64,000 bases of DNA from a virus (Duplodnaviria > Heunggongvirae > Uroviricota > Caudoviricetes). The position numbers and the translations under genes are program-made. Below the pieces are notes generated by a model. That model saw only the letters and a program-made list of their open reading frames with translations. It was not told the DNA's origin and did no database searches. Position 1 is the stretch's first letter, and each line of letters begins with the position of its first letter. This document shows, one piece after another, positions 829 through 46,199 of the stretch. Location of the stretch: positions 344-64,343 of IMG/VR virus record IMGVR_UViG_3300031867_000033; one strand, written 5' to 3'.

Positions 829-1158
829 CTACTCTGCGCCGCCCTCCCAAAATAAGTATCCATGATTACCTTTCTGCAAATCATATTCTTGTAAATACCC
901 CTTTGTAATTAATTCATTTACTGCATCGCTATAAGTATTTCGAGACATATTACAAAAGTCTTTTACATCTGCGTTACTTAATGCAAACTCATAATGATCT
1001 TTATTGCCGCAAATATATAACCATAATTTAAAAGCATTAGGACGTAGTTCATTCATTGCTTTTTTTATAGACTATTTATTAATCAGCATAAAAGAGGTCT
1101 TCTATTGAGGCTACCGACACACGTGAATAGCTTTCTATACTCCAAATAGTTTATACAT
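829..1158 (-). CDS. winged-helix DNA-binding protein (replisome-organizer / Rep-N-like HTH family); N-terminal 34 codons contain 4 TAG
   Basis: Track ORF 829..1056 extends upstream in frame to ATG at 1156-1158 preceded by GGAGGTGATGAA; HTH-like segment NAFKLWLYICGN...TYSDAVNELITKGYL shared with 22651..23130 and 57568..58413. Confidence 0.5.
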
Positions 1159-1168
1159 TTCATCACCT

Positions 1169-1909
1169 CCATTAAAGCTCCATTAATTGACCCTCACAAA
1201 AATTTAATTTATCAATCATTCTTTGAGATAATGCACCATTATTCTTTTCTGCTGATATATCACTTATATAATCCTCATTCTCAGGTAAATCATTAACTTT
1301 CTATAAATGATAAACAGTATAATTACCTAGTTGAGAATCATAAGCCGTATGATATTTAAGCTCAATAAAACCCCATGCCGCAAGTAATGCTAAATAAATT
1401 CTAATATTATCATACATTTCAGAAGTTGAATCACTATGACCTAATAGTATAATCATCTCTCTTTTTGTAAAACATCTATCTTCAGGATTTTCTGCTAACT
1501 TATCTATTCTTTTTAATATTAAATATGTTCTTAATAAATCTATATTTCCTTCTTTCTTTTTTCCAGAAGAATATTCTATAAGATTAGATAAAACATCTTT
1601 TTTAACGTCTATGGGTGTTCTGGAATATAAAATAAAATGCTCACCATCATCTCTAACTAAATGATGTTCATGTAATCTTTGAATAGCATTATAAAAAGTC
1701 TATGTGCTTTTTACCCCTAAAAACCTACAGCAAGCAGAAATATTAAAATCTTTTTTATATACATACCTATGGTCTTCTATTTTCTAAGCGTTAAATTTAG
1801 AAACAGAAAGAAGATAATAATAAATCTTCCAATGTTTTGAAGTTATTCCTTTATCCTTTTTAGGCGATTCCTTATCTGATGTCTAAACGTAAATTGAATC
1901 TTTTGGCAT
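1169..1909 (-). CDS. iteron-adjacent winged-helix (Rep-like) protein, 246 aa, 4 in-frame TAG
   Basis: RBS AAAGGAGGTGGCGAC-ATG at 1907-1909; 247 codons with no TAA/TGA; stop TAA 1169-1171 overlaps RBS of next gene; missing from track because of TAGs. Confidence 0.55.
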
Positions 1910-1961
1910 GTCGCCACCTCCTTTGTTATTTTCTATATTATAAGTAGAATGATAATAAAAA

Positions 1962-2096
1962 CTATCTAAAAAAAATCATAAATTAGTATCCCTATCTAAA
2001 AATTGATAAACCCTATCTAAAAATTGATAAGGAAATGTCTAAAAATTGATAAAGAACTATCTAAAATTGATAATAGACTATCTAAAAATTGATAAT
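1962..2096. repeat. iteron-like direct repeats, 5-6 x TATCTAAAAATTGATAA at 21-22 bp period
   Basis: Units at ~1963 (degenerate), 1993, 2014, 2037, 2058, 2080; immediately upstream of Rep-like gene start at 1909. Confidence 0.6.
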
Positions 2097-2102
2097 ATTT
2101 AT

Positions 2103-2400
2103 CTTACTCTTTTCCGAAAGAGTAAGCAGAAAAGGCTTCCGCAAAATGCGCGGAAGCGGGCATTAGGCGCTACGCGCCCATCAAGTCTATATAATCCCTA
2201 TACTAGCTCGGCCTCCGGCCTCGCAATCAAAAGGTCTTCACTAAGTAATCTTTTTCTTCCTACAATGCGCCGCCCTATCATAATTTACTCTTCCAAAAAC
2301 TAACCTCTATCCTCCTTGGACGCCGGCGCATCATAAGAAAAAAGGTTAGACCTTTTAGTCTAACCCTACCTTGCGCCGCCATATCATAGGTCTTCTTCTG
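2103..2400. repeat. GC-rich composite hairpin segment (multiple stems incl. GGCGCTACGCGCC) plus three GCGCCG-core palindromic elements
   Basis: Hairpins cttactcttt/aaagagtaag, gcttccgc/gcggaagc, ggcgc-tac-gcgcc, ggttagac/gtctaacc; shares motifs with 58690-58950. Confidence 0.5.
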
Positions 2401-2644
2401 GCGGCTTAATTTGTTCAATTTTAGATTTACTATGAGTTTTCTCTTCTACCTTATCTATTGCGTCGAAGAAACAAAGAATTAAAATTGTGATTAAAATACT
2501 TAAAATCCCTATTGGTACTCCCCAATAGATAAAACAAAAAGGAATTATAAAGATTGCTATAGAGAGATAGACAGATAGTAATATTAAGAAGATAAAGTAA
2601 AGAGTTTTAAGAAAATTTTTTAATGTTTCTTTAAGGATTTCCAT
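2384..2644 (-). CDS. small membrane protein (2 predicted TM helices)
   Basis: ORF track; RBS AAAGGAGGC before ATG; hydrophobic stretches. Confidence 0.55.
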   Translation of the reverse strand: MEILKETLKNFLKTLYFIFLILLSVYLSIAIFIIPFCFIYWGVPIGILSILITILILCFFDAIDKVEEKTHSKSKIEQIKPPEEDL

Positions 2645-5280: not shown

Positions 5281-6520
5281 AATATGTGTTATTAACTAAT
5301 TAACATTACTTAATTAGCAATTAACCATGTTATGGTTTTTAAAGAGTGCCACAAACACTCTTTGCAGCTATATTTATAGCTGCATTTATATCTCTATCTA
5401 TTTCAAATCCACAAGAACATTTAAATATTCTATCTTTAAGAGTTAATTCAATTCTGTTTCCACAACAACTACAAGTCTAAGAAGTATAAGCAGGATTTAC
5501 TTCATACAAGTCTGTTCCAAACTTTTTACACTTCCATTTTAAAGTGTCAGTAAATCTACTTAATGGACTTATTTGAATTAATCTTCGTCTGTTTTTATTA
5601 GACATTTTAATTTTAGCATTAGTCAAATTTTCTATTGCAACATTATTATATCTACACAACTTTGTAGTTGTTTGTTTAATAAAATCTTTCTTTAAATTCT
5701 TAAATCTTTCATAAGCTAATTTTACTTTTTCATTTAGTTTATTATAGTTATTTGAGTTTTTAATCTTTTTATCTCTTAAAGATTTCAATTTATTTATTCT
5801 ATAAAATTCTCTTATAATACTTTTAGGATAGTTAATAAACTTTCCTTCAGAGCTTGTCATAAAATTCTTTATACCCCAATCAAGACCTATAGTAGTTGAA
5901 CTATTCTACTTAATAGGTTCAGGAGCATCATAGCTACCCGTAATATACCATTTTCCCAATTCATATTTGAATCTTGGCTTTTTAATTTCTGATATATTAA
6001 ACTTAGTTATATATTTCCTATCAACTACTATTTGCGATTTACCTTTAACACTAAAACTCTAAGCAGCGGGTAATTTTACTTTAAAATTATTAAATTTTAA
6101 CGTTTGTGAAGGTAAATAGAATGATTGTTTATTTGGATTATATTTATGAAATTTAGGCTTTCTTCCAATCTTTTTATAAACTCTTTGAACAGTATTAGCA
6201 TAATTCAAAAGAACTCCTTTAACAATTCTATTATGTAATGGAATTTCTGTTTCTCCGAAATCATTAAGTAAGTCTTTTTCTTTATAACCAATAATTCCAA
6301 AAGAACTAACCTTTGGTAATTTTTCCTAAAATTTTTCAACAAGAAAATTTCGCATTATATGAGAGTACTTACAATAAATAAATAAAATTTCTTCTTGTTC
6401 TTTAGTTGGATAAATTCTAAATTTACAGCCTTTAGTTAACATGATTTCACCTCCTATAAATATAAATAGTAAATTTGTTTTTATATTTATATAATATCAT
6501 AAGTTTGATTTAAAATCAAA
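5281..6520 (-). mobile_element. IS200/IS605-family TnpB-only element, copy 1 (no TnpA seen)
   Basis: Conserved left end ...TATAAATATAARTAGTAAATTT...ATATCATAA and right end AACCATGYTATGGT...TGTTATTAA shared with copies at 56170-57460 and 60121-61345. Confidence 0.65.
5339..6442 (-). CDS. tnpB: TnpB (OrfB, RuvC-like + Zn-finger) ~367 aa, continuous only if 4 in-frame TAG are read as Gln
   Basis: Translation matches copy 2 along full length (MLTKGCKFRIYPTKEQE...CSCCGN...DRDINAAINIAAKSVCGTL); three of the four TAGs are aligned to Q in copy 2 or 3 (below), and a fourth such pair is a TAG in copy 3 opposite Q in copy 1. Confidence 0.8.
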
Positions 6521-10787: not shown

Positions 10788-11222
10788 TTATAGATTATTT
10801 TCTGCTTTATGGAATTCCTCAAGAATGGTCGTATAAACCTTCATATTAGGCTTATAAAAACTATTTCCAAAAATCTGCATATCGCTTCCAGTAAAATACT
10901 TTAATATTGCCGCGGCACAGCCAGCGCTACGACTGATTCCTGCATTACAATGTACAATTATTGTATCAACATGAGATTGCCAGCGATTTACAAAATTAAC
11001 AATATCCCGAGCTTCGGAAACAGTAATTACTCCCTTCCCTTCTTCCACATCGTTAAAAAATACAGGCAATACTGCTGCAATATGATTACGGTATTTACAA
11101 TGAGGAATATCATTAGGCTCCATATTACAATCATTTATTGATATAACAATTGAAATCTCAGAATGAGGTGCATATGCATATTCACGCGCTTTAGGACGAT
11201 TCATTACTATGACATTCTTCAT
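10788..11222 (-). CDS. Cys-based phosphatase (dual-specificity / PTP-like, HCx5R P-loop)
   Basis: VHCNAGISRSAG motif; start set at MKNVIV after AAGGAGAACAAT. Confidence 0.6.
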   Translation of the reverse strand: MKNVIVMNRPKAREYAYAPHSEISIVISINDCNMEPNDIPHCKYRNHIAAVLPVFFNDVEEGKGVITVSEARDIVNFVNRWQSHVDTIIVHCNAGISRSAGCAAAILKYFTGSDMQIFGNSFYKPNMKVYTTILEEFHKAENNL

Positions 11223-15616: not shown

Positions 15617-16450
15617 TTATGATTCTGAATCTTCAAAAGTAAGCCATTTGTTTATATAATTTCTATCTTCCTTGAACAGAGGAATTCGATCATCTACGAT
15701 CCAGCCCTTACCTCTATCCATTAAGCAACAGCTTCCTCTCTGGAATTTTAAAGGAATATTATGCCAAAGAATTCCTTTCTGCGTGGCAATCATTCTTTTA
15801 ATATCTTCACAATTTTTCCCTTCAAGCTGTCTCTGAGAAAAGAAAAGCTGACCTAATCCTTGAACTGAATTTCTTATCGCGTCTTGTTGTCTCCAAATAA
15901 GACAATTACACACTTCTTCTGGAGGAATATTAAATACGCGGGAATCAAATGTTGCTCCTTTTATTGAAGCTTTTGAATAGGCTTCAACTAAAGTTGCTCT
16001 CCTTTTTTCCTCTTCTGAAAAAGTTCGATTCGTTCCGCCCTCATCCCAATCTGGAAAACTTTCTCTTCCATATGAATATATATTAGCGGTAAATTTTTGG
16101 TTAAAGGCACATGTTGCAAGACTCGCTGATACGCTCGCTATTTTTTGAATGTTATTATTAAACCATGCCGTAGTATTAAGGGTTTTATAATCACAAAGAA
16201 CTAAAGTTATTTCATCAGATTGAGTATATCCAAAAACACAATTTTGAATATTTTCACAAAGATACTTCATTGTATCAGTCATAGTTTTGTTTAAAATTAA
16301 ATCATAGGGTTTGTCAAATTTCTTTGTAAAGGAATGGAAATGACAACCATCAACGCGGACAATAACTGGCGTCCTCCGAGTCAAATAATTTCGTGTTACA
16401 TTTTCATATGTTTTCATTCTATCTCCAAGAGAATCTCTTTTATTACTCAT
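15617..16450 (-). CDS. Thg1-like protein (tRNA-His guanylyltransferase family, 3'-5' nucleotidyltransferase)
   Basis: PVIVRVDGCHFHSFTKKFDKPYD...CVFGYTQSDEITLVL matches the Thg1/TLP signature (VRLDGRNFHKF...KPND...YGQSDE). Confidence 0.75.
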   Translation of the reverse strand: MSNKRDSLGDRMKTYENVTRNYLTRRTPVIVRVDGCHFHSFTKKFDKPYDLILNKTMTDTMKYLCENIQNCVFGYTQSDEITLVLCDYKTLNTTAWFNNNIQKIASVSASLATCAFNQKFTANIYSYGRESFPDWDEGGTNRTFSEEEKRRATLVEAYSKASIKGATFDSRVFNIPPEEVCNCLIWRQQDAIRNSVQGLGQLFFSQRQLEGKNCEDIKRMIATQKGILWHNIPLKFQRGSCCLMDRGKGWIVDDRIPLFKEDRNYINKWLTFEDSES

Positions 16451-17517: not shown

Positions 17518-18414
17518 TTATGGAAGAATTTTTATTTTATAAGCATTACTCTCTAAATCTGCGATTTGTATTAATCCCTTGTCTTGTAACCTTTTTATTC
17601 TTTCTCGAATTTTTGCAATTGTTGTTCCAGAATGATAACAACCTGCTGAATTTACTTTATACATCCAAATAAAATCAATTCCAAAAAAATATATTTGAGA
17701 AAATTCTGCCATATGTTTTTTAATATACCAAAGCATCATGCAATCTTCTTTAGCAATTAATATTTCTTCGTTGGATAGATATTTAAAAATATCTGGAATA
17801 TAATTAAATTCTAGATATGGAGCAGCCTTATCATTAATATCTACCGGCGCAAGAAAATGCTTCTCCTTTAATATTGACTAATATTTTGTTATTGTATTAT
17901 ATTTTATATTATCAATATAATTATTTAAATGCTTAGCAGTAGCATTTTTCTTTAAAATTAAATACTTATTTTCCTATTTATTATAGGATGACATTAAATA
18001 ATTGAGACAATAAATGTAAAATAATTTATCATTAAATAGATATAAAATATCATTGATGGTTATTTCTTTTTCTGCCTCTTCTTGTCTTAATGCCTTCGCT
18101 TTATCTGCTTCAACTTTGACTTTTATTGATGCTCGTATCGTTTCATCGTTATTCCATCTTCTATTATATCCACTTGGAAAATAGCAATCGTAATATATGA
18201 TATAATAATCTTCCCAATAATCTAATTCTTCTTTTGCAACTTCTTTAAGTAATTCAAAGGTAAAATTTTCTTCTCCTTCTATCTAAATAGTCATATCAAT
18301 AAATTGGTTTGAATGACCATCGTAATGCTAATCTAATCGACCTCCACATTTTTTTGATTGACCTACATAAATTTTACCATTAAGCTTGTTTGTAATTTTA
18401 TATATACCTACCAT
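17518..18414 (-). CDS. GIY-YIG homing endonuclease (298 aa, 5 in-frame TAG)
   Basis: RBS GGAGGTGTCAAT-ATG; N-terminus MVGIYKITNKLNGKIYVGQS; continuous to TAA at 17518 only with TAG as sense; track shows only the C-terminal 73 aa. Confidence 0.7.
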
Positions 18415-19044: not shown

Positions 19045-19830
19045 TTAACAAGCATAATAGCCTGATTTAGTAATTATTGAAGTAAGCTCTGGATGGGGAA
19101 GTCGAATAATTTCTTCTTTAAACTTATTTTTCTTTCTCAAATCTCTTATTTTCTTAAATGTATTATAATCACTCCATTCAACAGTGCGTATATATTTATC
19201 CAATTCAAAATAAGTAAAACCTAAATTGTCTTCATCACTTTTTCCACAAAGACCATCAGAAGGAGCTTTAAAAGCAAGGTCTTTCGAAATGCCAAGCCAC
19301 TTTGTAAAGTTCTTAACCTCAGTGCAAGTCAACTGAGCTATCGGCGCATAAGCTCCACAATCGTCGCCAAATAGCGTAGAATATCCAATAAATGCTTCAC
19401 TAAAATTCGCTGTGCAAATTACCTTACCACTTACTGTCTGAGCAACAGCAAATAAAGTTGCCATTCTAATTCTTGCTGGTAGGTTAATTTTTGCCTGAGA
19501 GCTCATGTCATCAATAAGATTTATTCCATTGGCAATAGATTCAACTGCTTCTTTTATATTTATTTCAAATGATGTAATTTCTAATTGTTTACAAACATTT
19601 CTGGCATCTTCAATATCACTTTGAATTCCGCTTGGCATTAAAACTCCAATAACATTTTCTTTTCCAAAAATTTTTGTTGCTAGCGCGGCGCAACAAGTTG
19701 AATCTTTACCTCCGGAAATTCCAATTATAAATTTAGAAGTATTTGTATCTATTGCCCATCTCGACCAGTCAAAACGAATAGCGTCGTAAATCTTTTCCCA
19801 AGGAAGCTCTCCAGTATATTTATTATCCAT
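19045..19830 (-). CDS. nadE: NH3-dependent NAD+ synthetase
   Basis: PP-loop SGGKDSTCCAALA and overall NadE-like sequence. Confidence 0.75.
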   Translation of the reverse strand: MDNKYTGELPWEKIYDAIRFDWSRWAIDTNTSKFIIGISGGKDSTCCAALATKIFGKENVIGVLMPSGIQSDIEDARNVCKQLEITSFEINIKEAVESIANGINLIDDMSSQAKINLPARIRMATLFAVAQTVSGKVICTANFSEAFIGYSTLFGDDCGAYAPIAQLTCTEVKNFTKWLGISKDLAFKAPSDGLCGKSDEDNLGFTYFELDKYIRTVEWSDYNTFKKIRDLRKKNKFKEEIIRLPHPELTSIITKSGYYAC

Positions 19831-21584
19831 TATATTCCCTCCATCTCCAAATTTTTATCAATTCTTGTTCTTATATCGTTAAATCTTGTGCGATAAAGAT
19901 TACCATTTTTAAAATAAGGATAAAAAGCACTAATTTTTTCAAAGTTCTTAAATTCTTCTTCATTTAGCTCGCTCTTAACTTTAAGTTCTCCATTTTCCCA
20001 ATAAGGAACACAAAGTCCTTTAAGCGATTTCTTACTACTAAAATTCTTAGGGTCTTTAAAAATTTGAAGTTCTTTTCCGTCAGAAGTCTTTCCATATGTT
20101 GCTTTAATTGCAATTGAAAAAGTATCACGAGTAAAAGGCTTAAGTTCCTTTTTTTCCTCTATTGCTTCCATAGAAAATGAACCAACGCCAAGACTTACAC
20201 AATTTGCTGCGAATCCTTTAAGAGCAAGATTTTCATAAATTTTCTTTGCTCTCTGAATTGTTATAGAGTCTCCATAAACAGCTTTAACTTTGGGATTTAA
20301 TTCTATATAGCCTTTAGAATTTTTATTTCCTCCAAAAAATTCATAAAGGGTTTCAACCATTCCTTTATCCTCATAAGTTGTGTCTCTAAGAAATTTAACT
20401 TCCCATTCCCAAGCAGTTTCATTTCTTCCATCTATATATGCCCTTTGATATATCTTATAAATACCATCAAAGTGCATATATTTAACTCTTATTTCAAAAT
20501 CATGCCCATAGGTATCAAGAATATATTTTACATGACTATCTGCCCAATCTAAAAGTTTTTCCTCAATTTCATTCATTGCGTGATCGTGATATATTTTAAT
20601 TATATCATTCATATCTATTACAGGAATTCCACAAAGTGCAGCAACTGGCTCTGCACTATCATGCCTTAGCCCAATAAAACCTTCATGCTCTTCAATTTCT
20701 TTCTTTAAACTAGGTAATACTTCCGTAGCGATACGCCAAAAATTATAGCTATCTGCAACAGCTGCAAAACTAGTCTTAGGATAAATTTCAGTTAAAAGTC
20801 TACGATAAGTTTCTCTTTCATCACCGCAGATTGCAAAATCAGAAGTCATAACAGAATGTTCAGTAGAAGTCAAACCTCCAATTATAACAGGTTCAACATC
20901 TTTATAAATTTCCTTAATTTCAAATCTTGCTCCAACAGTAGAAGAATTATAAAAAGTAGTAAGCCAACCAAGTGAAGAATTAACTGCGCTTTCATAACTC
21001 TCTTGACCACGCATTGAAAAATCACAGCATCCTCTCTTCCAAGTGTCTACATTATCAACTGTCATATTATAGTAATATTTAACAATCTTTCCATATTCAT
21101 ATCCAACAGTTGCACTTATAGAGGGATGCCATATCAGACATGAAAGCAAACTTTCAATGCTTTGTGCTACAAAACAAAAATCTTTATGTGTAGAGCGAAT
21201 TTCAATTGCAGGAACTTGCATAGGAACGAGAGTTCCCTCAGGGAGTGCATTAACTTCAATAGGAAGATAGCCAAGATCATGAAGTGCTAAAACTTTTTCT
21301 AAAGTTTTGTCTACTACTTCTTTAGTATATCCAAGGCCATTCATTAAAACATCATAATATTCTTGTTTAATTTGTTCCTTTGAAACATCAAAAAACGTTT
21401 CATTAAAATCTTTATATAAATATTTGTAACAAAAACTACTAAGTCCAAAAAACACCATTTTATCTATTTTTTTCAATCTAGATGAACGTGGAGTTAAATA
21501 AGAAGTAAAATGAACTAATTCTGGTCTATATTGATTTAGATGAGTAAGCTTATAAAAATCTGTCTTTAACATTGAATTATACAT
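19830..21584 (-). CDS. nadV: nicotinamide phosphoribosyltransferase (Nampt/NadV-like)
   Basis: 584-aa protein of the Nampt/NAPRTase family by overall sequence; RBS AAGGAG; start overlaps stop of upstream endonuclease gene. Confidence 0.65.
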   Translation of the reverse strand: MYNSMLKTDFYKLTHLNQYRPELVHFTSYLTPRSSRLKKIDKMVFFGLSSFCYKYLYKDFNETFFDVSKEQIKQEYYDVLMNGLGYTKEVVDKTLEKVLALHDLGYLPIEVNALPEGTLVPMQVPAIEIRSTHKDFCFVAQSIESLLSCLIWHPSISATVGYEYGKIVKYYYNMTVDNVDTWKRGCCDFSMRGQESYESAVNSSLGWLTTFYNSSTVGARFEIKEIYKDVEPVIIGGLTSTEHSVMTSDFAICGDERETYRRLLTEIYPKTSFAAVADSYNFWRIATEVLPSLKKEIEEHEGFIGLRHDSAEPVAALCGIPVIDMNDIIKIYHDHAMNEIEEKLLDWADSHVKYILDTYGHDFEIRVKYMHFDGIYKIYQRAYIDGRNETAWEWEVKFLRDTTYEDKGMVETLYEFFGGNKNSKGYIELNPKVKAVYGDSITIQRAKKIYENLALKGFAANCVSLGVGSFSMEAIEEKKELKPFTRDTFSIAIKATYGKTSDGKELQIFKDPKNFSSKKSLKGLCVPYWENGELKVKSELNEEEFKNFEKISAFYPYFKNGNLYRTRFNDIRTRIDKNLEMEGI

Positions 21585-22470
21585 ACATTCCTCGCTCCTT
21601 TAAATAATCTAAACTTATATTTTTTATATCATAATAAGGTATTGTAATTAATTTTATACCATTTATACTACAATAATCTTCTTTTTTTAAATCATAACGC
21701 TGCTATCTTTTTAAATAGTTTTCTCCTCCAAAGTATTCAATTGCCTAATAATGTTGAATACCATTAAATTCAATTAAATTAACAAGCTATCCCTATGAAT
21801 TATATATTCCAAAATCAAAACGTAAAGAGATTTTATCACCTTTTAAATCTGGAAAGGTTATTTGTGTCTTATAACTAATATTATTATTTTCAAAAATTTC
21901 TTTCAATTTTAATTCTCCCGCAGATGAAGAGCCACACCATTGACATCCATTGAAGTCTTGATTGATAATATGATCTCGTCTAACTGAATATAGGGTAGGA
22001 TTTCCACAGTTACACTAAATCCAATAATAAATTGAACTGCTTTTATTGAACTATGGATTTTCATTTCTTTTTATAACTTTATATCTTCCAATTTGCTATC
22101 CTGATAAATCCATAAATTTTCCACCTAAACAGCCACAACTTTTTACTTCTCCAGAAGTTAAATTACTTCCTTTAACAATTACAGGTTCAGGATTACCACA
22201 GTCACATAAACATTTCCAATAAATACAGCCATTCCTTCTTTCTTTTATCTCTTCTATAACTTTTAATTTATTGAATTTCTTTCCTGTAAGATCTATTTTT
22301 CTTCCTAAATGAGAATATTTTAAGTCTGGATATTTTTCAATAATTTTATTCCATATTTTATAGCTATATCTTTGGTATCCCATTTTAAGGAAAAAATCTT
22401 TTTTTGTCTAACTTTCATTTATTAGTTTTTGTAACTATTCTTTACTATAATTCTACCATTTGCTAGGCAT
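21578..22470 (-). CDS. HTH + Zn-ribbon-repeat + DUF559 (PD-(D/E)xK) endonuclease-like protein, family copy D (~297 aa, 14 in-frame TAG)
   Basis: RBS TTAGGAGGGG; repeats YWKCLCDCGNP...KSCGCL; C-terminal RFDFGIYNSQGQLVNLIEFNGIQHY; track has only fragment 22096..22383. Confidence 0.6.
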
Positions 22471-22650: not shown

Positions 22651-23130
22651 TTATAAAAAATCAAAATAATCTTTTTTGACCCTTCTTTTATTATATTCTT
22701 GTTTTAAATCTTTTACTAAACTTTTAGTTCTTTGTATCTTATCTTGTTTATCTTTTGAAACTTGTTTAATAAACTTTGCTTTATCTCTAAAAATAGCTTC
22801 TTCCTCTGGGGTTAATCCTAATTCTATCAATTTACTCATTAATTCATTTAATTGTACTTTTAATTCATCTAAGGTTAATGATCCATCTTTACAATTGGTA
22901 TAAAAATAAAAATGATTATCTGAATCATAAACAATATAACCTTTATCTATCAATTCAGTTTTCGCTCTCTTTGCAGTACTTTCACTTACGTCATAACTTT
23001 TCTAAAAGTCTTTTGGTGAATAAGCAAAGTCATAATTATCCTAATTTTGAGCAAAATATAAATATAATTTTAATGCACTTGGAGTTAAATTCTTTGCTGC
23101 TTCTTGAAGTTCTTCAATAGAAATCTGCAT
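22651..23130 (-). CDS. winged-helix DNA-binding protein (replisome-organizer / Rep-N-like), 2 in-frame TAG
   Basis: RBS CAGGAGGG-ATG at 23128-23130; ALKLYLYFAQNQDNYDFAYSPKDFQKSYDVSESTAKRAKTELIDKGYI. Confidence 0.55.
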
Positions 23131-23369
23131 AAATGGCTTCCCTCCTGTTTTATCAATACGTTTTTTAATCGTACCATTATGCTAATTTGCATACGTCATA
23201 TTAACAACTCCCATTTTTTATTTTATTTACTCCTCTTCAATAATGAATAATAATAAAGATAGGAGGAGGTGGGAGTAAACCTCCTTTTAAATAGAGTAGC
23301 TAATTCTATTTCCTATCATATATTATGTAATAATTATATCATAAGAATCTAAAAAAATCAATCATTTTT

Positions 23370-24710: not shown

Positions 24711-25106
24711 TTAAGGTGCAATAAGTTCATCAATATCTGTCTGAACATCAGCAATTTTCTTGCTAATTGTTGTTCCAAAATCAAAACAGTCGGCATATTC
24801 TCTGTAAATAGCTTCCGTAATCTCATTGGTAAGAACTCTAAAAGCTTTAAATGCCGCCCTTACTGCCTTAGCTCTTGCAATAGCCTTCGCCGTCTCAATA
24901 TCGGAGTTATCTCCCTTTTTAAGCCTTGCAATGCCCTTGTATTCAACATTGATAGTATTCTTAGGCTTCTCACCTCTAAGACCTATATAAAGAGCAGTAT
25001 AGCGCTTAAGTTCATCATTCTCCATAGCAGGCTCAGCAAAGCAAATAACAGCGCCATCATTGATCACATAACGATAAGTAAACTTCATTCTAAATCTCTT
25101 AAACAT
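24711..25106 (-). CDS. hypothetical protein (locally higher GC)
   Basis: ORF track. Confidence 0.55.
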   Translation of the reverse strand: MFKRFRMKFTYRYVINDGAVICFAEPAMENDELKRYTALYIGLRGEKPKNTINVEYKGIARLKKGDNSDIETAKAIARAKAVRAAFKAFRVLTNEITEAIYREYADCFDFGTTISKKIADVQTDIDELIAP

Positions 25107-26878: not shown

Positions 26879-27661
26879 TTACCTCCCAAGCATTAACTTA
26901 ACTTTTTCATTGACAAGCCAAGAGGGAAACTCATTGAGAAGATTAAAATAAGTAATTTTATCAATTCCTTCAACAATAAAGAAATCAGCATTGTCTACAT
27001 AGCGTCCTTCCATATCATCAAGTTTCTGAAGAAAATCAAAGTCATCATCAATTCCTAATCCAACAAACTGCCAGAAAATTGGAAGTCTGGATGCTTCCTT
27101 TATAGTTAATTCTGAATCATTATGATCAAAACAATCTCCATCAGTTAAAAACAAAACATAAGAAGGAAGTTTAGAATTAGAATAATTATCAATGACATTT
27201 TTCATAACGGGAGCATACTCTGTACCACCCATAGAATATCTTATAGTTTCCCTTTCTATATAATTGGTTATATTATTAAGCGTAACATCAGGCAATCTAT
27301 GATACCCATTTTCAAAAATCCAAACTTCCATAGTTCCATTATCATCAAATTCCATAGCCATTGGAAGAATCTTCTCTAGAACTTTCTGAACTGTTCCGTT
27401 GTTATATAGCGGACGCATAGAGCCAGAAAAGTCAAGAACAACTCCTACTTGAGCTTTAAGTCCATTAAGTACGGGCTTCATTAAACAAACTTTATGGACT
27501 TCATCTTTAGCAAGATTTATCTTCTTTGTTAAATCAATAGAAGGTTCAATTGAAATGTTCTGTTTTACATAAATATCAACATCATTTTGATTTTGAATTA
27601 CCTGTCCCGACGCATCATCAATCTTGTTATTCTTATTAAACATCTTATTAAAAAATCCCAT
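26879..27661 (-). CDS. von Willebrand factor A (vWA/MIDAS) domain protein
   Basis: DFSGSM ... T ... LTDGD MIDAS-type motifs. Confidence 0.65.
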   Translation of the reverse strand: MGFFNKMFNKNNKIDDASGQVIQNQNDVDIYVKQNISIEPSIDLTKKINLAKDEVHKVCLMKPVLNGLKAQVGVVLDFSGSMRPLYNNGTVQKVLEKILPMAMEFDDNGTMEVWIFENGYHRLPDVTLNNITNYIERETIRYSMGGTEYAPVMKNVIDNYSNSKLPSYVLFLTDGDCFDHNDSELTIKEASRLPIFWQFVGLGIDDDFDFLQKLDDMEGRYVDNADFFIVEGIDKITYFNLLNEFPSWLVNEKVKLMLGR

Positions 27662-31407: not shown

Positions 31408-31556
31408 ATAGAAATACCTCTTTTTCTTATTTTATATATATATTATAACAAAAATTTTTAAAAATTGCAAATATTTTTATGATTATGCATATATTATTAA
31501 AATTACAATACGCCGCCATACCATAGCTCTCTATGATACCGCGGCGCGTTGTAATT

Positions 31557-33450: not shown

Positions 33451-34530
33451 TTATACTCCTATATTAAAAATCTTAACTAACTTCTTCGTAGGTAACGAAT
33501 CAATCCACTCCTTTGCAACACCATCATAAGCCTTAAACCAAAGAACAGGAGTCTTTGCTATCTCTCTTACAAATTCACTAAACTCTCTTCTTCCTCTTTC
33601 AGGGTTCTCTTTCTTCCACTGGTTAACTCTATCCTGAACAATTTCTGCTCTAGACTGAATCTCGTTCCATTCAGCTCTAATCTTATCAAAAAAATCACTT
33701 AACTCTCGAAAATAAGTAAGTAACTCTACATCTTCTCCACTTCTAATTAAATCAAGAGCATACTCAGTAGTTATATTATGATTGTTTATTGCTCTATGAA
33801 GCTCAAAATACTTTAGAGTCTTTAATTTAACTCTATGATTATACTTATCCTTAATAACAATTCCCTCGGTATTAGAATCAAAAGAATTAACTAAGTCTCT
33901 ATAATCCTGCTCATTTTCCAGTATATACTGCGCCGGCTTGGGTAATCCTATGTCTATATCTAACTCCTCTAAGGTATCATTATCACGAGTTAATATATGG
34001 AATAACTGAGGCTTGTCATATGAAACAACTATTTTATTAAATTTACTACATAATTCTAAACAAGTAGTATGCTTAGGATTTAATTTAGAATAATCGAAAC
34101 CAACCTGCGCCGCGACATCATCAAACAAATCCTTAAAAGAATTATAGCCAGGGTAAGACAAATCTGCCTCATCTGCGTCAAAAGTAGAACGAGTTCCCAC
34201 ATGCCACTCATCATCATAGTAGTAAATGAATATTAAAGTTCCATCCTCCTTGCGACTAGCCGTAGCAGTATTCCAGTCTATCTCATCACAGCCATACTCT
34301 CCTAAGTTAAAGAACCGATAGAAGCCATATCTGACTACTCTCCAAGTCCCCTTCTCCAGAATCAACCCTCTAGACTCACGAGTTATCTCCTTTAAAGTAT
34401 CAGACTCTATCTGATTATAGTTAAATAATATCAAATTCCCCTTCTTCTTTATCTTTAAAGAATAAGGAGGGGCAGTAAGTAAATCTTCCCAATTCTTATT
34501 AGCTTTTATAAACTCAACAATCTTTAACAT
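33451..34530 (-). CDS. ATP-dependent RNA ligase, Rnl1-like (T4 RnlA-type)
   Basis: Motif I KEDG (RKEDGTLIF), motif IV EGIVIKD, motif V HRVKLK; adjacent to polynucleotide kinase gene. Confidence 0.65.
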   Translation of the reverse strand: MLKIVEFIKANKNWEDLLTAPPYSLKIKKKGNLILFNYNQIESDTLKEITRESRGLILEKGTWRVVRYGFYRFFNLGEYGCDEIDWNTATASRKEDGTLIFIYYYDDEWHVGTRSTFDADEADLSYPGYNSFKDLFDDVAAQVGFDYSKLNPKHTTCLELCSKFNKIVVSYDKPQLFHILTRDNDTLEELDIDIGLPKPAQYILENEQDYRDLVNSFDSNTEGIVIKDKYNHRVKLKTLKYFELHRAINNHNITTEYALDLIRSGEDVELLTYFRELSDFFDKIRAEWNEIQSRAEIVQDRVNQWKKENPERGRREFSEFVREIAKTPVLWFKAYDGVAKEWIDSLPTKKLVKIFNIGV

Positions 34531-35041: not shown

Positions 35042-35929
35042 TTAATGACCAGCCTCATCTGCTTCATGAAGCATTTTTAATTTCTCAAAGAAATCATTTC
35101 CATAAAGATTTTTAATATTCCTAAGTCTATTCTCGCCTTCGTAAAAAGCCATGTGAAGCTGAATTAAATTAGCAGTTTCAATTGTTGAAAAATTAGCATC
35201 GACGCTTGTTATATAATCATAAGCGCTAACATTAGCATGAAAAAAATAGTGGGCTTCTTCCGTTTTTATTCCTTTCTTATTTGTAAAAACTTTAGTAACT
35301 TCTTTTCCGATGTCATGAAGATACGCCGCAGAGACTACTTCAATCGGGAATTTATTTTTCATTGCATAATCTCCCGCAGCTATCATATGGTCTCCTATAG
35401 ACAAACTATGATGGTGATTATCATGAGGTACGTTTCTAAGTACTTCTACTCTTTTAATTAAATCAACTTCGCTATTTTCATCATGAATAAAATGAATTTC
35501 CGACCAACCCTCACAATAGGCAGGCACCTGGAAGCTTCTATACATTCTATCCATCACATAAGAAGGGACAGTTCTTTCTCTATTTAAATTTCTTCTTACG
35601 CAAGTATCAAAAGGAATTGCAAAAACAAGTGCAATTGCATCAAATTCAACATGAGTTCTCTCTCGAAGCGCATTAAGAAATTTAATACGACGTTTCTGAT
35701 TTAAATTAGTCGCATCATAAAAAACATTTTTCTCTGCATTTAAACTAGCTACTGTTCTATTCATCATCTCATTAAAAATAATATCATTATGAGACTGATC
35801 ATTTACATCTCCAAACATCTCTTCTCTTAACTTATCAGATGAAATATAAACAGCATTAGATAATTCATTTCTCCAATAAGTGCTCTTACCTGCTCCAGGC
35901 AAGCCTATGGTCATCCATAACTTAGTCAT
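35042..35929 (-). CDS. polynucleotide 5'-kinase (P-loop) fused to C-terminal HD phosphohydrolase domain (RNA end-healing enzyme)
   Basis: Walker A GLPGAGKST at N-terminus; HD signature AAYLHDIGK and His cluster in C-terminal half. Confidence 0.65.
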   Translation of the reverse strand: MTKLWMTIGLPGAGKSTYWRNELSNAVYISSDKLREEMFGDVNDQSHNDIIFNEMMNRTVASLNAEKNVFYDATNLNQKRRIKFLNALRERTHVEFDAIALVFAIPFDTCVRRNLNRERTVPSYVMDRMYRSFQVPAYCEGWSEIHFIHDENSEVDLIKRVEVLRNVPHDNHHHSLSIGDHMIAAGDYAMKNKFPIEVVSAAYLHDIGKEVTKVFTNKKGIKTEEAHYFFHANVSAYDYITSVDANFSTIETANLIQLHMAFYEGENRLRNIKNLYGNDFFEKLKMLHEADEAGH

Positions 35930-36945: not shown

Positions 36946-37281
36946 TCATATAGTCACAAATTCTGCTTGTACTGCTTTCATTTCATTCCATTCTTCATCT
37001 GTAATCTTACAAAAATCACAGAATGCTTTTATTGGATTATCTGCCGCGCTTACTGCAAGAACAAAATCAAATGAACCTTTTGGCTCTATATTCTTACGTT
37101 CAAGAATTTCTTCAATACCTTCTGCTACAACCTCAGGAGGCTGCCAATTTTTTATAAGATAACGCGAAACACTTGAAGCTGAGATGCCAAGCTGCCGCGC
37201 CACCTGAGCCTTAACGCCACATTCATAGTAAAGTCTGTTAATTTGTTCTTTCTGTTCCTCTGTGATTCTTGAACCTGCCAT
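36946..37281 (-). CDS. HTH DNA-binding protein
   Basis: GVKAQVARQLGISASSVSRYL helix-turn-helix. Confidence 0.5.
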   Translation of the reverse strand: MAGSRITEEQKEQINRLYYECGVKAQVARQLGISASSVSRYLIKNWQPPEVVAEGIEEILERKNIEPKGSFDFVLAVSAADNPIKAFCDFCKITDEEWNEMKAVQAEFVTI

Positions 37282-38662: not shown

Positions 38663-40725
38663 TTACGCATCATTATTCATAATCTCTGCAAGGTCTCTCT
38701 TATTATTAAACTGCTCTATACTAGCCTTAATCTCCGCTATATCTTTCTTAAGTCCTTCCACATTCTCATTCCCGTCCTCTATGGGCGCCGGCGCATTGTA
38801 GGAATTAAAATTCTGAGCAAGCATCATCATAAGCATAGGATTAATTTCCTTATCTTCACTCATGAGCATAAAAGGAAGCATCTGATTTATATTGCTATTC
38901 CCATTTCCCATAAAAGAAAACATCATAAGATATTTAAACATATCACTATTGTCGCTATCATTATCCTTATTCATAAACATAAAGGGAAGCATATTACCAA
39001 AAGGATTAGCCTCATTTGCTGTATTGCCAATCATCGAAAAAGGCGAAATTACCTTTGTATAGTAATTAAAACCGAATATACTCTTCTCGGGGATAAGGAA
39101 CTGAATAGTACCACCGATAGGATCAATTGCTTCAAAAGTAGTAGGTGTACTTACCTTTACTATATAAAAACTACCCTTATGCCGAATTACATCTCCTCTT
39201 GTAAGGCTTTCCTTATTCACAGGGATAGTATAAAGAGGAATATCCATTACAAAATCAGATACATTTGTCGCTTCATTTGTATCAATATTATAAACACAAT
39301 AATCCCCATTCACATCTCTAAAAGCTATTCCATTAAAGGAATAAGCAATTTCCTTTGTCTTAAGCTCACCAAAGCTAAAGTTCTTAAAAATATTCTTCAT
39401 AGTTTTTCTCTCCTTCTTATTATTATTATCAATTTTTATACCAATCGTTTTAACTCTAGACAATCTATAATAGTCGTCTCCCTTTCTAATAACAGCCCCA
39501 TCAGAATAAGGCTTCATTGTACAAGGGTCTATATAGATAAACTGTTCTTTAAGTTCATTAGAAAATCCATCTTGATTACCAGGATGTACAATATAATCTG
39601 CACCTGCAATACATCTTTCCATTCTATCGAAAAAGACTTCATCTGAATTTTGTGATTCTTTTTCTTGTGATTTATCTATATCCTTTACATCTTCTACTAT
39701 AGGAATTTCTGTAGGCTTAAAACAATCAATTGCTATAGCCTCGTTATCCATTTCCTTTTGACAATCTCTTCTTGCCTTTATATAATTCTCTAATTCATTA
39801 AAATCATTAGCATGAAAAGCATAAATATTATCATGTTCTCGTATTTCAAAACCTTCACTACTGTTGTTCCAAAAAATAATTCCTAATTCTTCAGTTGTAA
39901 AGGATTCTTTTATAATATCTGCTCCATAAATAGTATAAATACGAACAGTATCAAAAGTTGAAATTTCAATTCTTTTATTCGCTTCATCTGGAGTTAAATC
40001 CATAATTTTCTCAACTCTTAACTGTTTTTTATCATAAGGATTGTCAACCATATAAGAATTGTCAATTATATAAGAATCCTTATAAAGTTTAGTAACGTTA
40101 ATTATTGTACCAAGATGAATTTTTGATTTTATATTCTCGCCAAGTTCATATAAATAACTCTTTTGCGAAGAAAAATTACCCCATCTATCAGCAAATTTTG
40201 CTAAAATATAGCTATGTTTCATTATATCTTCATTCTTCATCTCTACTGGTATATTATCTTTCTCATTAATTGCTTTCGCCCTTTCCGAATCAATAAAATC
40301 TGTAAATGCAGTATAATTAGGATAAATTTTACCCCACGGATCAGTATACTGAACATGACGATAATCTGATGTTAAGTCACAAGTATCAAGATAATTAGCT
40401 AAAATAACATTAGAATAACTTTCCCTTACTAAAAGGAAATGCTTAATTCCTTTCCAATTATTAAGTATATTGCAGTAATAGGAAAAAGACTCAAAATCTT
40501 CATCATCAAAACCTTTAACCATTTCAACACAAAATGGTCCGTGCGCTATGCTATCTTCTTCATACGGATAATAATTTTTTCCATAGTCATTCTTATGTCT
40601 ATTTACAAAAGAAACATCTCGAATATAATCTCCAATCTTTAACTTATGTTCAAAGATTTCAACTGGAGTTAAAATATCACAACTTAAATCTCTAATCCAT
40701 GCAACTCTTACCATTATTCTTTTCT
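38663..40725 (-). CDS. large hypothetical protein (~687 aa) with Met-rich C-terminal repeats (MLPFMFM / MLPFMLM / PMLMMML)
   Basis: ORF track trimmed to MVRVAW after AAAGGAGAAAAGAATA; contains an in-gene GC-palindrome core at 38781-38803. Confidence 0.65.
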
Positions 40726-41724: not shown

Positions 41725-41832
41725 AAAACCTCCTGTTTCTCCTGAAAAAAATTTTATTGAAGAGAAGGTCAGGAGAAACCTTATCAAAGTAGACGCGACC
41801 TACTTCTATCTCTTCAATTTTAGCGAAGTGAG

Positions 41833-41923
41833 CGGGATTCGGACCCGCGCCAAAGAATTACCTGTGCTACACGATTAGCAATCGCGCCCCTTATAACCAC
41901 TTGGGTATCACTCCATTTAACAG
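41833..41923 (-). tRNA. tRNA-Ser (anticodon GCU), long variable arm
   Basis: Manual fold: acceptor GGAGTGA/TCACTTC, D-arm with GG, anticodon loop UUGCUAA, 21-nt variable arm, T-arm GCGGG-UCCGAAU-CCCGC. Confidence 0.65.
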
Positions 41924-41929
41924 GCTGTG

Positions 41930-42001
41930 AAAGACTCGAACTCTCATCTCGCAGACTTGGAATCTGGTATTCTACCATTGAACTAACAACCTAAAGCCAT
42001 T
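41930..42001 (-). tRNA. tRNA-Trp (anticodon CCA)
   Basis: Manual fold: acceptor AGGTTGT/ACAGCCT (one G.U), D-arm GTTC-AATGGTA-GAAT, anticodon loop UUCCAAG, T-loop TTCGAGT. Confidence 0.55.
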
Positions 42002-42371
42002 TGGTGCGTGCACTCACCCTTAACCACAGCAGGCTCACTGAGAAATTCCTTTTTCTCGATCTTAAAAGAAATTATAAACGCCGCTACCACACTAGCAGTA
42101 TATCTAGTTGACCATACTAGAACGGACTGAGTTTGTTATCGTAAAACTAGTAAAACGGGGTTATTCTTTAAAGAGGTTACTCGCTGCCCTCTGTTGCAAC
42201 TTATATTAAACTGTCTAGTTGCCAAAGACATTTGTTTATACTCCGAAGAGTCGCCACTTGCGTTTTGAGATTCGACTTACAGCGCAATTTTTTAATAACC
42301 AAAACCACTTAAATATGCTCCATGCAATTTACTTCTAATTTTATTCCCATATAGTTTACATATTTAAGATA

Positions 42372-42444
42372 AGCACCCTATCCGCTACGATCGGATAACT
42401 GTAGATTACAAATCTACTATTTTGCCAAATTAAACTAAGGGTGC
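42372..42444 (-). tRNA. candidate tRNA-Thr (anticodon UGU) with atypical T-loop
   Basis: Acceptor GCACCCT/AGGGTGC, anticodon arm GTAGA-TTTGTAA-TCTAC; T-loop reads ATCGTAG, hence lower confidence. Confidence 0.4.
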
Positions 42445-42564
42445 AAATTAACTACTGTAAAACAATAGTTAATTTTATAAGAAAGAGGTTTAAGGTAAAA
42501 TCTTTATTTATTTCTTATTTTCTATAATAATTATAGCATAAATTTCTTAAAAAATCAAATATTT

Positions 42565-42960
42565 TTATCTCTCTGGAAGCTCAATTGTTGGTTGCTCTGC
42601 TATTGCTCTTGAAGCGAACCAGTTAAACCAAGGGTTAGTATAATAATAATATTGAAGTTCTATCTCGGTATTATACTCACAGATAGCTTTGTAAGCCTCG
42701 ACACTTGGATACCAATGTTCTAGGTCTAACTCGGCTACAATTGCTTCTCTGCGTTGAGTATAAGTGATACGCCGCGCCTCTTCTTTAAAAGGCAATTTCA
42801 TAGCAAGAATTATAGCTATTTCACAAAGTAGACACACTACTGAAAAAGCAGATAAAATTGTCCCAAATATTTCAAAACCTTCAGCTTCAAGGTAAGAACT
42901 TATAAAAGTTATAATAAACCCAATTAAAATAAGTCCAATTGTTATTAGCGTAAGAATCAT
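42565..42960 (-). CDS. membrane protein (two N-terminal TM helices + soluble domain)
   Basis: ORF track. Confidence 0.5.
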   Translation of the reverse strand: MILTLITIGLILIGFIITFISSYLEAEGFEIFGTILSAFSVVCLLCEIAIILAMKLPFKEEARRITYTQRREAIVAELDLEHWYPSVEAYKAICEYNTEIELQYYYYTNPWFNWFASRAIAEQPTIELPER

Positions 42961-43041
42961 TTAAATTTTCCTTTCTAAAACAAATCTTCCAATACGAAGC
43001 ACTACTGTAACAACGATTAAAATTAAACTAATTTTTGCCAT
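42961..43041 (-). CDS. possible 26-aa hydrophobic leader peptide MAKISLILIVVTVVLRIGRFVLERKI
   Basis: RBS GAGGTGA; preceded by GC-rich nested hairpin GGACCCGGGGGCGGTGCCCGGCAAGTCC. Confidence 0.25.
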   Translation of the reverse strand: MAKISLILIVVTVVLRIGRFVLERKI

Positions 43042-43416
43042 AACTCACCTCATGACCGTTTATGGACTTGCCGGGCACCGCCCCCGGGTCCGCAAAAAAC
43101 TATTTCATATTATCTACACGTTTAGTTGCGTCATTTATCTATTCTTTACCCTGCACCGACGCAACAAGTTCAGAGTTATGTCAGCCTAAAATACTTTACC
43201 TACTCGGCAATAGAATAAAGAACTATTTCTAAAAATATAAATCAATAGTAGTTATAATGAAATAGTTAAAACGAAACCACTAATGATACCGCGGCACATC
43301 GTCCGCAAAAATTAAAAAATTAAGCAGCGTTTATTTTGCTTTATGCCGTAAAGTGGACATCTACTACGTGCAATATGCTTTCATTTCCACGTCGATTCTA
43401 AAAAAAAAACAAGCCC

Positions 43417-44287: not shown

Positions 44288-44452
44288 GTTTTATTTTTCT
44301 GTAATAAAGTAAAAAAAATAGAAATAAAATCTAAGATTTCGACTTCTGTAAAGAAAAATCTATATAAGGAAAGAGGGCAGGGACTAAGTCCCTGCATATA
44401 ATCTGAATTTTGTCTACTCTTTTTAAACGAACGAGTTTGAGATTTCAGAAAC

Positions 44453-44593: not shown

Positions 44594-44609
44594 AATATTT
44601 CTCCTTTAA

Positions 44610-46106: not shown

Positions 46107-46199
46107 CTTTAACAAGACCACTGAGTTAACTAATTGCGCGCTTTTTAGCTTAATCCTACTCTTCGGTATTAAACTATTTTATAATCTTCTATATATTAT

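Follow-up and report, generated by a model that had tools for sequence, protein, structure and literature searches.

Hypervariable cassettes of a tandem winged-helix gene and its direct repeats in TAG-recoded phages: putative mobile, iteron-type accessory origins

Iteron plasmids, among them F (RepE/ori2), pPS10 (RepA), R6K (pi), RK2 (TrfA/oriV) and other Rep_3-type replicons and their relatives, encode an initiator of ~230–300 aa with two winged-helix (WH) domains; beside its gene lie 4–7 direct repeats with ~22-bp phasing and an adjoining AT-rich element, and the initiator regulates its own synthesis through a promoter-proximal site. We describe a comparable arrangement that occurs twice in a 64,000-nt stretch, here called the window, of the Caudoviricetes record IMGVR_UViG_3300031867_000033 (positions 344 to 64,343 of that IMG/VR record). 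Each occurrence, module 1 and module 2, consists of a minus-strand WH gene (encoding P1 and P3, respectively), an array of direct repeats upstream of it, and a group of hairpins beyond the array. Autoregulation through a promoter-proximal site is a further likeness that we infer for the modules, and the RepE54-iteron complex is the best full-length match of P1 in the Protein Data Bank (PDB). The modules differ from iteron plasmids in that they have neither Rep-family membership nor DnaA boxes, are TAG-recoded, and stand in several copies inside a large phage genome; moreover, the AT-rich element in the expected place beside the repeats is a conserved hairpin (hairpin B) with a GATAAATA box, not a set of 13-mer-type repeats. 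Together with related loci, the modules constitute a family of cassettes that occurs in multiple copies in recoded phages of the Clostridia type and has not been described before.

Controller (C) proteins of restriction-modification (R-M) systems and their C-boxes are similar in that a DNA-binding gene lies directly upstream of, and is co-transcribed with, a nuclease gene and has its sites in its own promoter region; however, C proteins are small helix-turn-helix (HTH) dimers on inverted repeats, whereas the modules combine a tandem-WH protein of 245–282 aa with five direct repeats, mostly without a nuclease. Phage T4 has several dedicated origins in its ~170-kb genome, e.g., oriE with RepEA/RepEB, and at least one of them has short iterons and its own accessory protein, but these origins are mostly promoter- or R-loop-based, not hypervariable protein-plus-repeat cassettes, and have no homology to the modules. 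ScpB/kite proteins, the label carried by PHROG 3396, are tandem-WH proteins that act jointly with a kleisin and an SMC ATPase and do not bind repeats sequence-specifically. The nuclease Odn (gp88) of phage ICP1 consists of a GIY-YIG-superfamily nuclease and a copy of the iteron-binding domain of the PLE initiator RepA (42% identical to PLE RepA_N), and it cuts the PLE origin only when the iterons are present (Barth et al. 2021, PMC8263062).

P1 is the putative iteron-binding, Rep-like protein of module 1. An earlier note, made from the sequence alone, had placed here a 246-aa winged-helix gene at 1169..1909 on the minus strand; the fold and the strand hold, and the gene is one residue shorter and contains in-frame TAG codons (Table 1). 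Open reading frame (ORF) calling under the standard code broke P1 into fragments, and a recall with TAG as sense restored the whole gene. The 63 homologues of P1 are exclusively metagenomic, and an exhaustive profile search yielded ~404 clusters at 50% identity. The tandem-WH fold of the family is shown by a predicted structure: an AlphaFold (AF2) model built from the family alignment, whose first row was P0001 (96% identical to P1), has two winged-helix units and a helical tail at a predicted local distance difference test (pLDDT) score of 91.6. When the model was compared with the PDB by Foldseek, the sole full-length matches were RepE54-iteron complexes and the Rep-iteron-DUE (DNA unwinding element) complexes 8aan/8ac8, all of them weak (238–245 columns aligned, E 0.03–0.1, template modelling scores 0.33–0.39). 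A fold search of BFVD gave significant matches to uncharacterised gut-phage proteins, one of them annotated as "Replication protein O" (E = 8e-5). The second gene of the module, P2, had been given as a winged helix-turn-helix (wHTH) gene at 829..1158; it does encode an HTH_36 protein (Pfam, E = 2e-7), and its frame continues through the TAG at 829–831 to a TAA at 802, the public gene call being likewise 118 aa. The PHROG matches of P2 (E = 2e-7 to 1e-4) are to phage replication initiators and DnaD-like loaders and cover their DNA-binding N-terminal part. HTH_36, the family of P2, is also the commonest weak Pfam match over 84 members of the P1 family (43 members).

The five to six direct repeats of module 1, spaced 21–22 bp apart, were confirmed as five good copies and one degenerate copy. 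A repeat finder reported 6 copies at 1971–2116 with start-to-start distances of 21, 21, 22, 22 and 21 bp, and Tandem Repeats Finder (TRF) reported 4.9 copies with a period of 21 at 1992–2095. No 17-mer match with 0–1 mismatch occurs in the 64-kb window beyond this array, and the only other 21–22-bp tandem array in the window is that of module 2. The 50 bp previously given as the distance to the gene applies to the degenerate copy only (1957–1975, ~50 bp from the P1 ATG); the nearest full repeat is 83 bp away. The promoter marked in the leader is a putative assignment from our reading of the sequence, a consensus scan having given no full-promoter score. An isolated inverted copy of the repeat core lies upstream of the module (Table 1), and no counterpart of it was found in other modules.

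We compared 16 modules, two from the window, twelve from the related loci L001–L019 and two of the P3 type from L024 and L026; the related loci are stretches of up to ~13 kb, and the relatives are IMG/VR contigs of 150–180 kb and contigs of metagenome-assembled genomes binned as Clostridia, Bacillota or Melainabacteria. On the gene strand the order is constant in all 16: one or more GC hairpins with a T-run, hairpin B, an AT box, the repeats, a spacer, and a Shine-Dalgarno (SD) sequence with the WH gene. Every module has 4–6 repeats in one orientation with a period of 21–23 bp. Each paralogue has a repeat sequence of its own, within a constant design of variable segment, T-tract and variable segment that suits a protein with two DNA-reading heads. 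Throughout the 16 modules, protein and repeat sequence change together, the geometry remaining that of plasmid iterons. Within the spacer of 50–110 bp are a TATAAT that resembles a -10 element and copies of the repeat that are partial or inverted. Hairpin B has the consensus TTACTnTTT-loop-AAAnAGTAA with 8–13 pairs and a loop of 3–10 nt; positions 1–5 of its stem are invariant, and positions 6, 8 and 9 vary only by double changes from C-G to T-A. The short AT box past it is usually (A)AGATAAATAnTA, and both elements are kept even between the P1 and P3 subfamilies. Further iteron clusters of the incC-like kind were found neither within ±1.5 kb of the modules nor elsewhere in the window.

The last GC hairpin precedes a T-run and was scored as an intrinsic terminator in both window modules; the corresponding position, that of hairpin A, is occupied in the other modules by a GC hairpin and T-run whose stem sequence differs. 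The stem sequences of the GC hairpins vary from module to module, and the stems co-vary between loci. In 13 of 14 modules, hairpin A has a GNA-triloop hairpin in front of it. A conserved AAAGTGAGC lies 5' of the GC hairpins in 7 of 14 modules (two in L003, three in L007, one each in L010 and L019); the 5' arm of hairpin B could pair with it instead of folding into the hairpin, a possible RNA or DNA switch; this alternative pairing is not present in module 1 of the window. At L003, L010 and L012, differing alleles of the module occupy the same neighbourhood.

Module 2 had been taken for a near-duplicate of module 1 at 57568-58950. The architecture is indeed the same, and the repeat sequences differ; P1 and P3 show no similarity by BLAST. 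By hhalign, the two families are homologous over their full length (probability 92%, E = 6e-7, 207 columns), and P3 matches the family hidden Markov model (HMM) with E = 8e-38. Because homology between P1 and P3 is detectable only at the profile level, module 2 is by its sequence a distant paralogue rather than a near-duplicate. TRF reported 4.8 copies in its array (58530–58634), and the repeat was matched 5 times where 0.31 matches were expected by chance. An association of the modules with TnpB was considered and rejected: a TnpB gene adjoins module 2 only, and no TnpB homologue occurs in the eight related loci compared.

Cultured, standard-code relatives were reached only through a distant member of the family in a Paraclostridium dentum contig, not through P1-subfamily queries. 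Past the gene, that contig has a 23-bp repeat in 3.7 copies and, beyond it, AT-rich repeats. Relatives with 47% identity to this member are encoded by 18 C. difficile plasmids (~37–49 kb, typed as non-mobilizable) and by the phages phiCD6356 and AR1074-1; phiCD6356 is among the C. difficile extrachromosomal elements, and the plasmid pCDBI1 has been grouped with probable phages and megaplasmids (PMC6807378). gp35 of phiCD6356 and the pCDBI1 protein match the family HMM with E = 5e-19 and 1e-14 and the P1-subfamily HMM with E = 5e-13 and 4e-9, respectively; proteins of the gp35 type carry the database labels ScpB or HTH. In pCDBI1, 6.3 perfect 22-bp repeats and an array of AT-rich 10-mers lie between the WH gene, labelled "HTH domain-containing protein", and an annotated replication-initiation gene. 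Downstream of gp35 lie three DnaA-box-like 9-mers, 22-bp repeats and a perfect AT-rich inverted repeat; phiCD6356 also has a separate lytic-type initiator, gp41, with its own internal 23-bp repeats. As in the modules, the gene in both elements adjoins 22-bp direct repeats and AT-rich repeat or inverted-repeat DNA. Both differ from the modules in their standard code, in the single copy found in the stretches examined and in the lack of hairpin B, and phiCD6356 differs further in that the repeats are downstream of the gene and accompanied by DnaA-box-like 9-mers. In pCDBI1 (L027, 782–3543), two GIY-YIG genes lie directly 3' of the replication-initiation gene, which faces the WH gene across the repeats; the association of nuclease and origin thus recurs in cultured elements.

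Based on these features, we propose that the modules are mobile, autoregulated, iteron-type accessory origins independent of DnaA, the most likely of the explanations considered, although we regard its chances as only about even. P1 or P3 would bind each 21–22-bp repeat as a monomer, one winged helix per half-site flanking the T-tract, and a monomer on each phased repeat would align five proteins head-to-tail along the same face of the DNA, just upstream of their own promoter. Since the promoter-proximal copy overlaps the -35 position, the protein would repress its own synthesis. The complex would distort or melt the adjacent AT-rich hairpin and GATAAATA box and so provide an accessory origin that needs no DnaA, by analogy with the initiator and oriV of iteron plasmids. 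Hairpin A, as a putative terminator of transcription arriving from upstream, would insulate the site from read-through. Because the cassette is TAG-rich, its translation would have to await the action of a suppressor tRNA. Three features argue for an origin, namely the fixed five-repeat geometry, the conservation of hairpin B and the origin-like contexts of the distant relatives; hairpin B flanks the repeats at their gene-distal end, and simple autoregulation would have no need of it.

The window has ~30% GC, and every recognisable gene is on the minus strand. Many ORFs are uninterrupted only with TAG translated as sense, and a suppressor tRNA with anticodon CTA is encoded at 53099–53175 (minus strand), in keeping with the P1 reading frame; for these two reasons the window is assigned to a TAG-recoded phage. 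TAG probably stands for Gln, because the first TAG of P1 is replaced by CAA in the 74%-identical homologue from L001, and a Firmicutes host is suggested by ribosome-binding sites with a strong GGAGG. The in-frame TAGs of the window cluster in particular genes: P1, P2, P3, a P2 paralogue (22651–23214), three TnpB, three GIY-YIG and four Zn-ribbon endonuclease-like genes are rich in them, a few other ORFs have 1–3 each, and most of the remainder have none. Likewise, in the related loci L014, L015, L023, L024 and L026 the WH and nuclease genes have 1–10 TAGs each, and DnaE, ligase and RNase H have none. From this distribution, recoding seems to gate the translation of selfish genes in addition to that of late genes.

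Several results weigh against an origin. With 4–7 in-frame TAGs, P1, P2 and P3 resemble homing endonucleases and TnpB, whereas in related phages DnaE, ligase and RNase H have no TAG, and this contrast argues against an early core initiator. Cumulative GC skew is negative throughout the 64 kb and falls monotonically across both loci, without the inflection that the earlier note had suggested looking for, although this is a weak test in a phage transcribed one way. The iteron-type layout proposed in that note was borne out, a tandem-WH protein lying next to phased repeats that co-vary with it and to an AT-rich element; DnaA boxes are absent, the 16 modules containing a single box with 1 mismatch, which is below the window background. 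P1 has the weak full-length structural match to RepE-iteron complexes described above, but P1, P2 and P3 belong to no Rep family of Pfam or NCBIfam (Rep_3, RepA_N, RPA or similar); the families most often matched by the 84 family members include no Rep family, only generic wHTH families such as HTH_36, TrmB, Crp-like and MarR. A tblastn search with the P1 subfamily found zero matches in 72,556 plasmids and 50,697 GenBank phages. At least five modules, three of them in tandem, occur in one IMG/VR genome, which is unusual for origins. To our knowledge, no family member, phiCD6356 gp35 included, has an experimentally tested function.

The WH domain of the family is shared with nucleases. An extension at the N-terminus is present in about 10% of the family members listed, and all eight extended members that were tested carry GIY-YIG (PF01541); seven fused GIY-YIG::WH ORFs were found in the related loci. 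Free and nuclease-fused WH domains are interleaved and 42–52% identical, a range comparable to the identity of Odn with PLE RepA_N: the free protein in L015 is 42% identical to the DNA-binding part of the nuclease P0204, and the WH domain of the L026 nuclease is 52% identical to the free protein P0057. At three loci, L015, L024 and L026, the free WH gene is succeeded directly by the nuclease gene, the stop codon of the first overlapping or almost touching the start codon of the second; the WH domain of the nuclease and that of its free neighbour are of different subtypes (25% identity in L015). A nuclease is missing beside most P1-type modules, a fused one is missing from both modules of the window, and no WH domain was detected in the three GIY-YIG genes of the window. 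One of these, at 17518–18414 (minus strand), was considered as a WH carrier and rejected (hhalign probability 4%, no HMM match), its C-terminal 190 aa not being recognisable as the WH domain; its nuclease domain is 57–67% identical to those of the fused nucleases. By these features the cassette belongs to a selfish gene class, TAG-rich, multi-copy and hypervariable, and is the neighbour and probable target of GIY-YIG nucleases that share its domain.

Odn and PLE are similar to this system in the combination of a GIY-YIG-superfamily nuclease with a domain homologous to the iteron-binding one and in the co-variation of initiator domain and iterons as a module. They differ in that the nuclease is N-terminal here, the order being reversed, that tandem WH domains take the place of RepA_N, and that the nuclease genes described here adjoin iteron cassettes of other specificity within phage genomes. 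Odn is, as far as we know, the single experimentally known case of such a nuclease chimera. We tentatively suggest an arms race, a possible if somewhat doubtful scenario, in which GIY-YIG nucleases repeatedly captured the tandem-WH domain of the initiator and cut the iterons of a rival allele in a co-infecting genome, whereupon repair copies the nuclease together with a differently specified cassette, hairpins A and B serving as the upstream homology arm. Such an arms race would account for the hypervariability of protein-repeat pairs at syntenic positions, for a flank that is conserved, for the presence of several cassettes in one genome and for a TAG-rich codon class in common.

Should the modules prove to fire as origins, no replication-initiation cassettes of TAG-recoded gut phages would have been described before them, and a single large phage would be seen to possess several origins that are interchangeable and have an initiator apiece, the translation of the initiators being gated by the suppressor tRNA of the phage. 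The link to GIY-YIG nucleases widens the single case of ICP1 Odn to a whole family with matched, diversified 22-bp specificities. Pairs of binding protein and nuclease offer a testable system for the evolution of DNA-binding specificity under conflict and a source of programmable tandem-WH modules. Moreover, a family hitherto labelled "ScpB" or "HTH domain protein" gains a hypothesis of function and cultured entry points, namely phiCD6356 gp35 and the C. difficile phage-plasmids of the pCDBI1 type.

The array could instead be purely an operator, the WH protein being only a transcriptional controller like a C protein of an R-M system or a toxin-antitoxin autorepressor, with no role in replication; together with the upstream terminator and the TAGs, it would keep the cassette, and often a co-transcribed GIY-YIG nuclease, silent until late infection, and the window modules would be orphans that have lost their nuclease. 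The operons of iterons, WH gene and GIY-YIG::WH gene in L015, L024 and L026 agree with this explanation, as do the overlap of the last repeat with the presumed promoter, a TAG-rich class common to endonucleases and not to replication genes, the multi-copy occurrence typical of homing endonucleases, and the wHTH transcription-regulator profiles among the matches of a family that has no Rep-family membership, no skew inflection and no DnaA boxes. However, five phased direct repeats (~110 bp) far exceed known controller operators, which have one or two dimer-bound inverted repeats; repression alone leaves the conserved hairpin B and AT box unexplained, the nuclease is absent beside most P1-type modules, and distant relatives lie in origin-like DNA. 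We consider a purely transcriptional role, the main rival of the origin proposal, rather unlikely.

A free WH protein might also act as a shield, competing with GIY-YIG::WH nucleases of the same specificity, or interfere by blocking the matching origin of a co-infecting phage or satellite as a dominant-negative initiator, in the manner of incompatibility. The interleaving of free and fused domains is in line with such a role, the hypervariability of repeats and proteins at syntenic positions (L003, L010, L012) is what an arms race predicts, and Odn/PLE provides a precedent. In the three operons, however, the adjacent free protein is unlike the domain of the nuclease, so that it cannot shield against its own partner, and neither the retention of repeats in each genome nor the conservation of hairpin B is explained; we judge this role improbable.

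The GC-rich hairpins of module 1 raise the question of a small RNA. The earlier note had described a 130-bp GC-rich segment of stacked hairpins; hairpins do exist there, but the segment is a mixture of terminators, the AT-rich hairpin B, further GC hairpins and copies of a motif that is dispersed across the genome. A functional RNA partner would be transcribed from the hairpin stack between the minus-strand terminators at 2367–2342 and 2157–2135, two successive terminators that bracket ~185 nt. The region folds more stably than shuffled controls on the gene strand (z -5.5 in module 1 and -3.8 in module 2), hairpin stems co-vary between loci, and the AAAGTGAGC alternative pairing recurs in half of the modules considered for it. 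Nevertheless, the opposite strand folds nearly as well (z -4.9 and -4.0), no promoter was identified, and the Rfam 15 covariance models gave nothing at the gathering threshold in the hairpin region and only chance-level hits at permissive E-values; in addition, the region upstream of hairpin A varies in sequence and length among modules, and part of it is the genome-wide motif. A functional RNA is therefore very improbable in our view. A partition or DNA-organising site, with the array as a centromere or condensin-like loading site and P1 as a ParR/TubR-like or ScpB/kite-like adaptor, is hardly credible: phased direct repeats upstream of a binding-protein gene are typical of type II/III centromeres, PHROG 3396 is labelled ScpB, TubR and AspA are among the weak profile matches and phiCD6356 gp35 lies ~2 kb from a ParA-like gene, but no ParA, ParM, TubZ or SMC-like gene and no other partition NTPase was recognised beside either window module or in the related loci, the ParA of phiCD6356 has its own downstream partner gene, and five or more centromeres per genome are implausible.

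The features of the window are collected in Table 1.

Table 1. Features of the two modules and of the remainder of the 64,000-nt window
Feature	Position	Strand	Description
P1	1172–1909	-	Tandem winged-helix protein, 245 aa, 4 in-frame TAGs; WH1 ~residues 24–103, WH2 ~117–205
P2	802–1158	-	Single wHTH protein, 118 aa, 5 in-frame TAGs; starts 13 nt past P1 stop; own SD GGAGGTGA
Module 1 leader	1910–1956	-	SD AAGGAGG; -10-like TATAAT (1942–1937, minus strand); -35 position inside degenerate repeat copy
Module 1 iteron array	1957–2095	-	Five good copies of TTATCAATTTTTAGATAG (gene strand) and one degenerate promoter-proximal copy; period 21–22 bp; same orientation; central T-tract in each
Module 1 AT-rich element	2096–2125	-	Hairpin B TTACTCTTT-cgga-AAAGAGTAA (2104–2125) and GATAAATA box (2096–2103); kept in 16/16 modules
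Module 1 hairpin A	2126–2157 (hairpin 2135–2157)	-	GCTTCCGCG...CGCGGAAGC then CTTTTCTGC; intrinsic-terminator-like (terminator scan)
GNA-triloop hairpin	2166–2178	-	GGCGC-GTA-GCGCC, GNA on gene strand; identical sequence at 58755–58767
GGCC hairpin	2208–2225	-	GAGGCC-GGA-GGCC (fold analysis)
Genome-wide GC palindromic motif, three copies	2259–2390	-	Not module-specific
Intrinsic terminator of upstream 86-aa gene	2342–2367	-	Terminator scan; not module-specific
Isolated inverted iteron core copy	2415–2426	+	TCAATTTTAGAT, 12/12; within upstream 86-aa membrane-protein gene, ~320 bp from array
P3	57565–58413	-	Module 2 protein, 282 aa, 7 in-frame TAGs; 14 homologues
Module 2, whole	57565–58701	-	Layout as module 1
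Module 2 leader	58414–58526	-	TATAAT-like -10, one partial direct iteron copy, one inverted half-copy TTATCAAAA; putative function
Module 2 iteron array	58527–58635	-	Five copies of GTGATACTTTTTGATAAA (gene strand), period 21–22 bp
Module 2 hairpins B and A	58645–58701	-	Hairpin B (58645–58672); terminator-like hairpin A (58683–58701, then CGCTTTTTGA); terminator scan
Module 2 GC-rich hairpin stack	58702–58980	-	GGCGC-GTA-GCGCC 58755–58767; inverted GAGGCC hairpin copy 58882–58899; one 1-mismatch DnaA-box-like 9-mer ~58961–58969
TnpB genes (OrfB_IS605 / Cas12f-like TNB), n = 3	5339–6442, 56253–57407, 60171–61268	-	N-termini nearly identical; one directly downstream of module 2
Zn-ribbon paralogues, n = 4	21577–22470, 43417–44466, 46384–47448, 62417–63307	-	Repeated CxxC units, C-terminal EYQGxQHY motif, 3–16 in-frame TAGs each
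Auxiliary genes	15617–16450, 19830–21584, 26879–27661, 33451–34530, 35042–35929	-	Thg1-like tRNA-His guanylyltransferase, NAMPT-like enzyme, TerF-type vWA protein, T4-type RNA ligase, AAA_33 kinase/HD protein
tmRNA gene	43060–43416	-	RNA gene calls
tRNA cluster, ~13 tRNAs	41823–54028		RNA gene calls (ARAGORN, Rfam)
Dispersed motif sites, examples	843, 2274, 2322, 2380, 2888, 3096/3101, 4536, 4635/4640, 6553/6558, 9288, 10685, 12482, 28947, 36004/36009, 38787, 49519, 61773		
Other short GC-rich islands	10904–10956, 24853–24899, 31509–31556, 37162–37238, 38752–38814, 42003–42051, 49535–49647, 50914–50983, 53707–53782, 61457–61512		Mostly outside ARAGORN/Rfam calls

The genes neighbouring modules 1 and 2 are P2, an unannotated 249-aa gene, TnpB and a major facilitator superfamily (MFS) transporter. 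An exact-protein look-up of the genes flanking module 1, aimed at presence/absence polymorphism of the module, returned, besides the source contig, one short contig that ends before the module, and a nucleotide search with 25 kb of the window found zero matches among GenBank phages. The Zn-ribbon paralogues are probably a further homing-endonuclease family, judged by their motifs; a Pfam scan of one of the four gave no match. The auxiliary genes look like the tRNA-repair and NAD-salvage set typical of large phages. Two tRNAs, at 51339–51409 and 51507–51577, were detected by Rfam and missed by ARAGORN.

The dispersed GC palindromic motif (approximately TATAATGCGCCGGCGCATTATAGG, with the variant GGGCGGCGCA..TAGG) occurs at 23 sites in the window, mostly intergenic and often directly 5' of a Shine-Dalgarno sequence on the gene strand; candidate roles are those of a phage-specific promoter, of a site of RNA processing or of an element resembling repetitive extragenic palindromic (REP) sequences. 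The box after hairpin B was considered as a T4-like late promoter (TATAAATA) and rejected: 6 of 23 matches are intergenic in a window with 24% non-coding sequence, and the spacing to TTACT is not conserved. DNA mini-hairpins of the GCGAAGC type are unusually stable, which we treated as a lead only. As a genome-wide trait the GNA triloop was rejected, since the gene strand shows GNA in only three of the nine GC triloop hairpins of the window, and across loci the pattern is limited to the module hairpin. The other short GC-rich islands are candidate structured RNAs or motif clusters.

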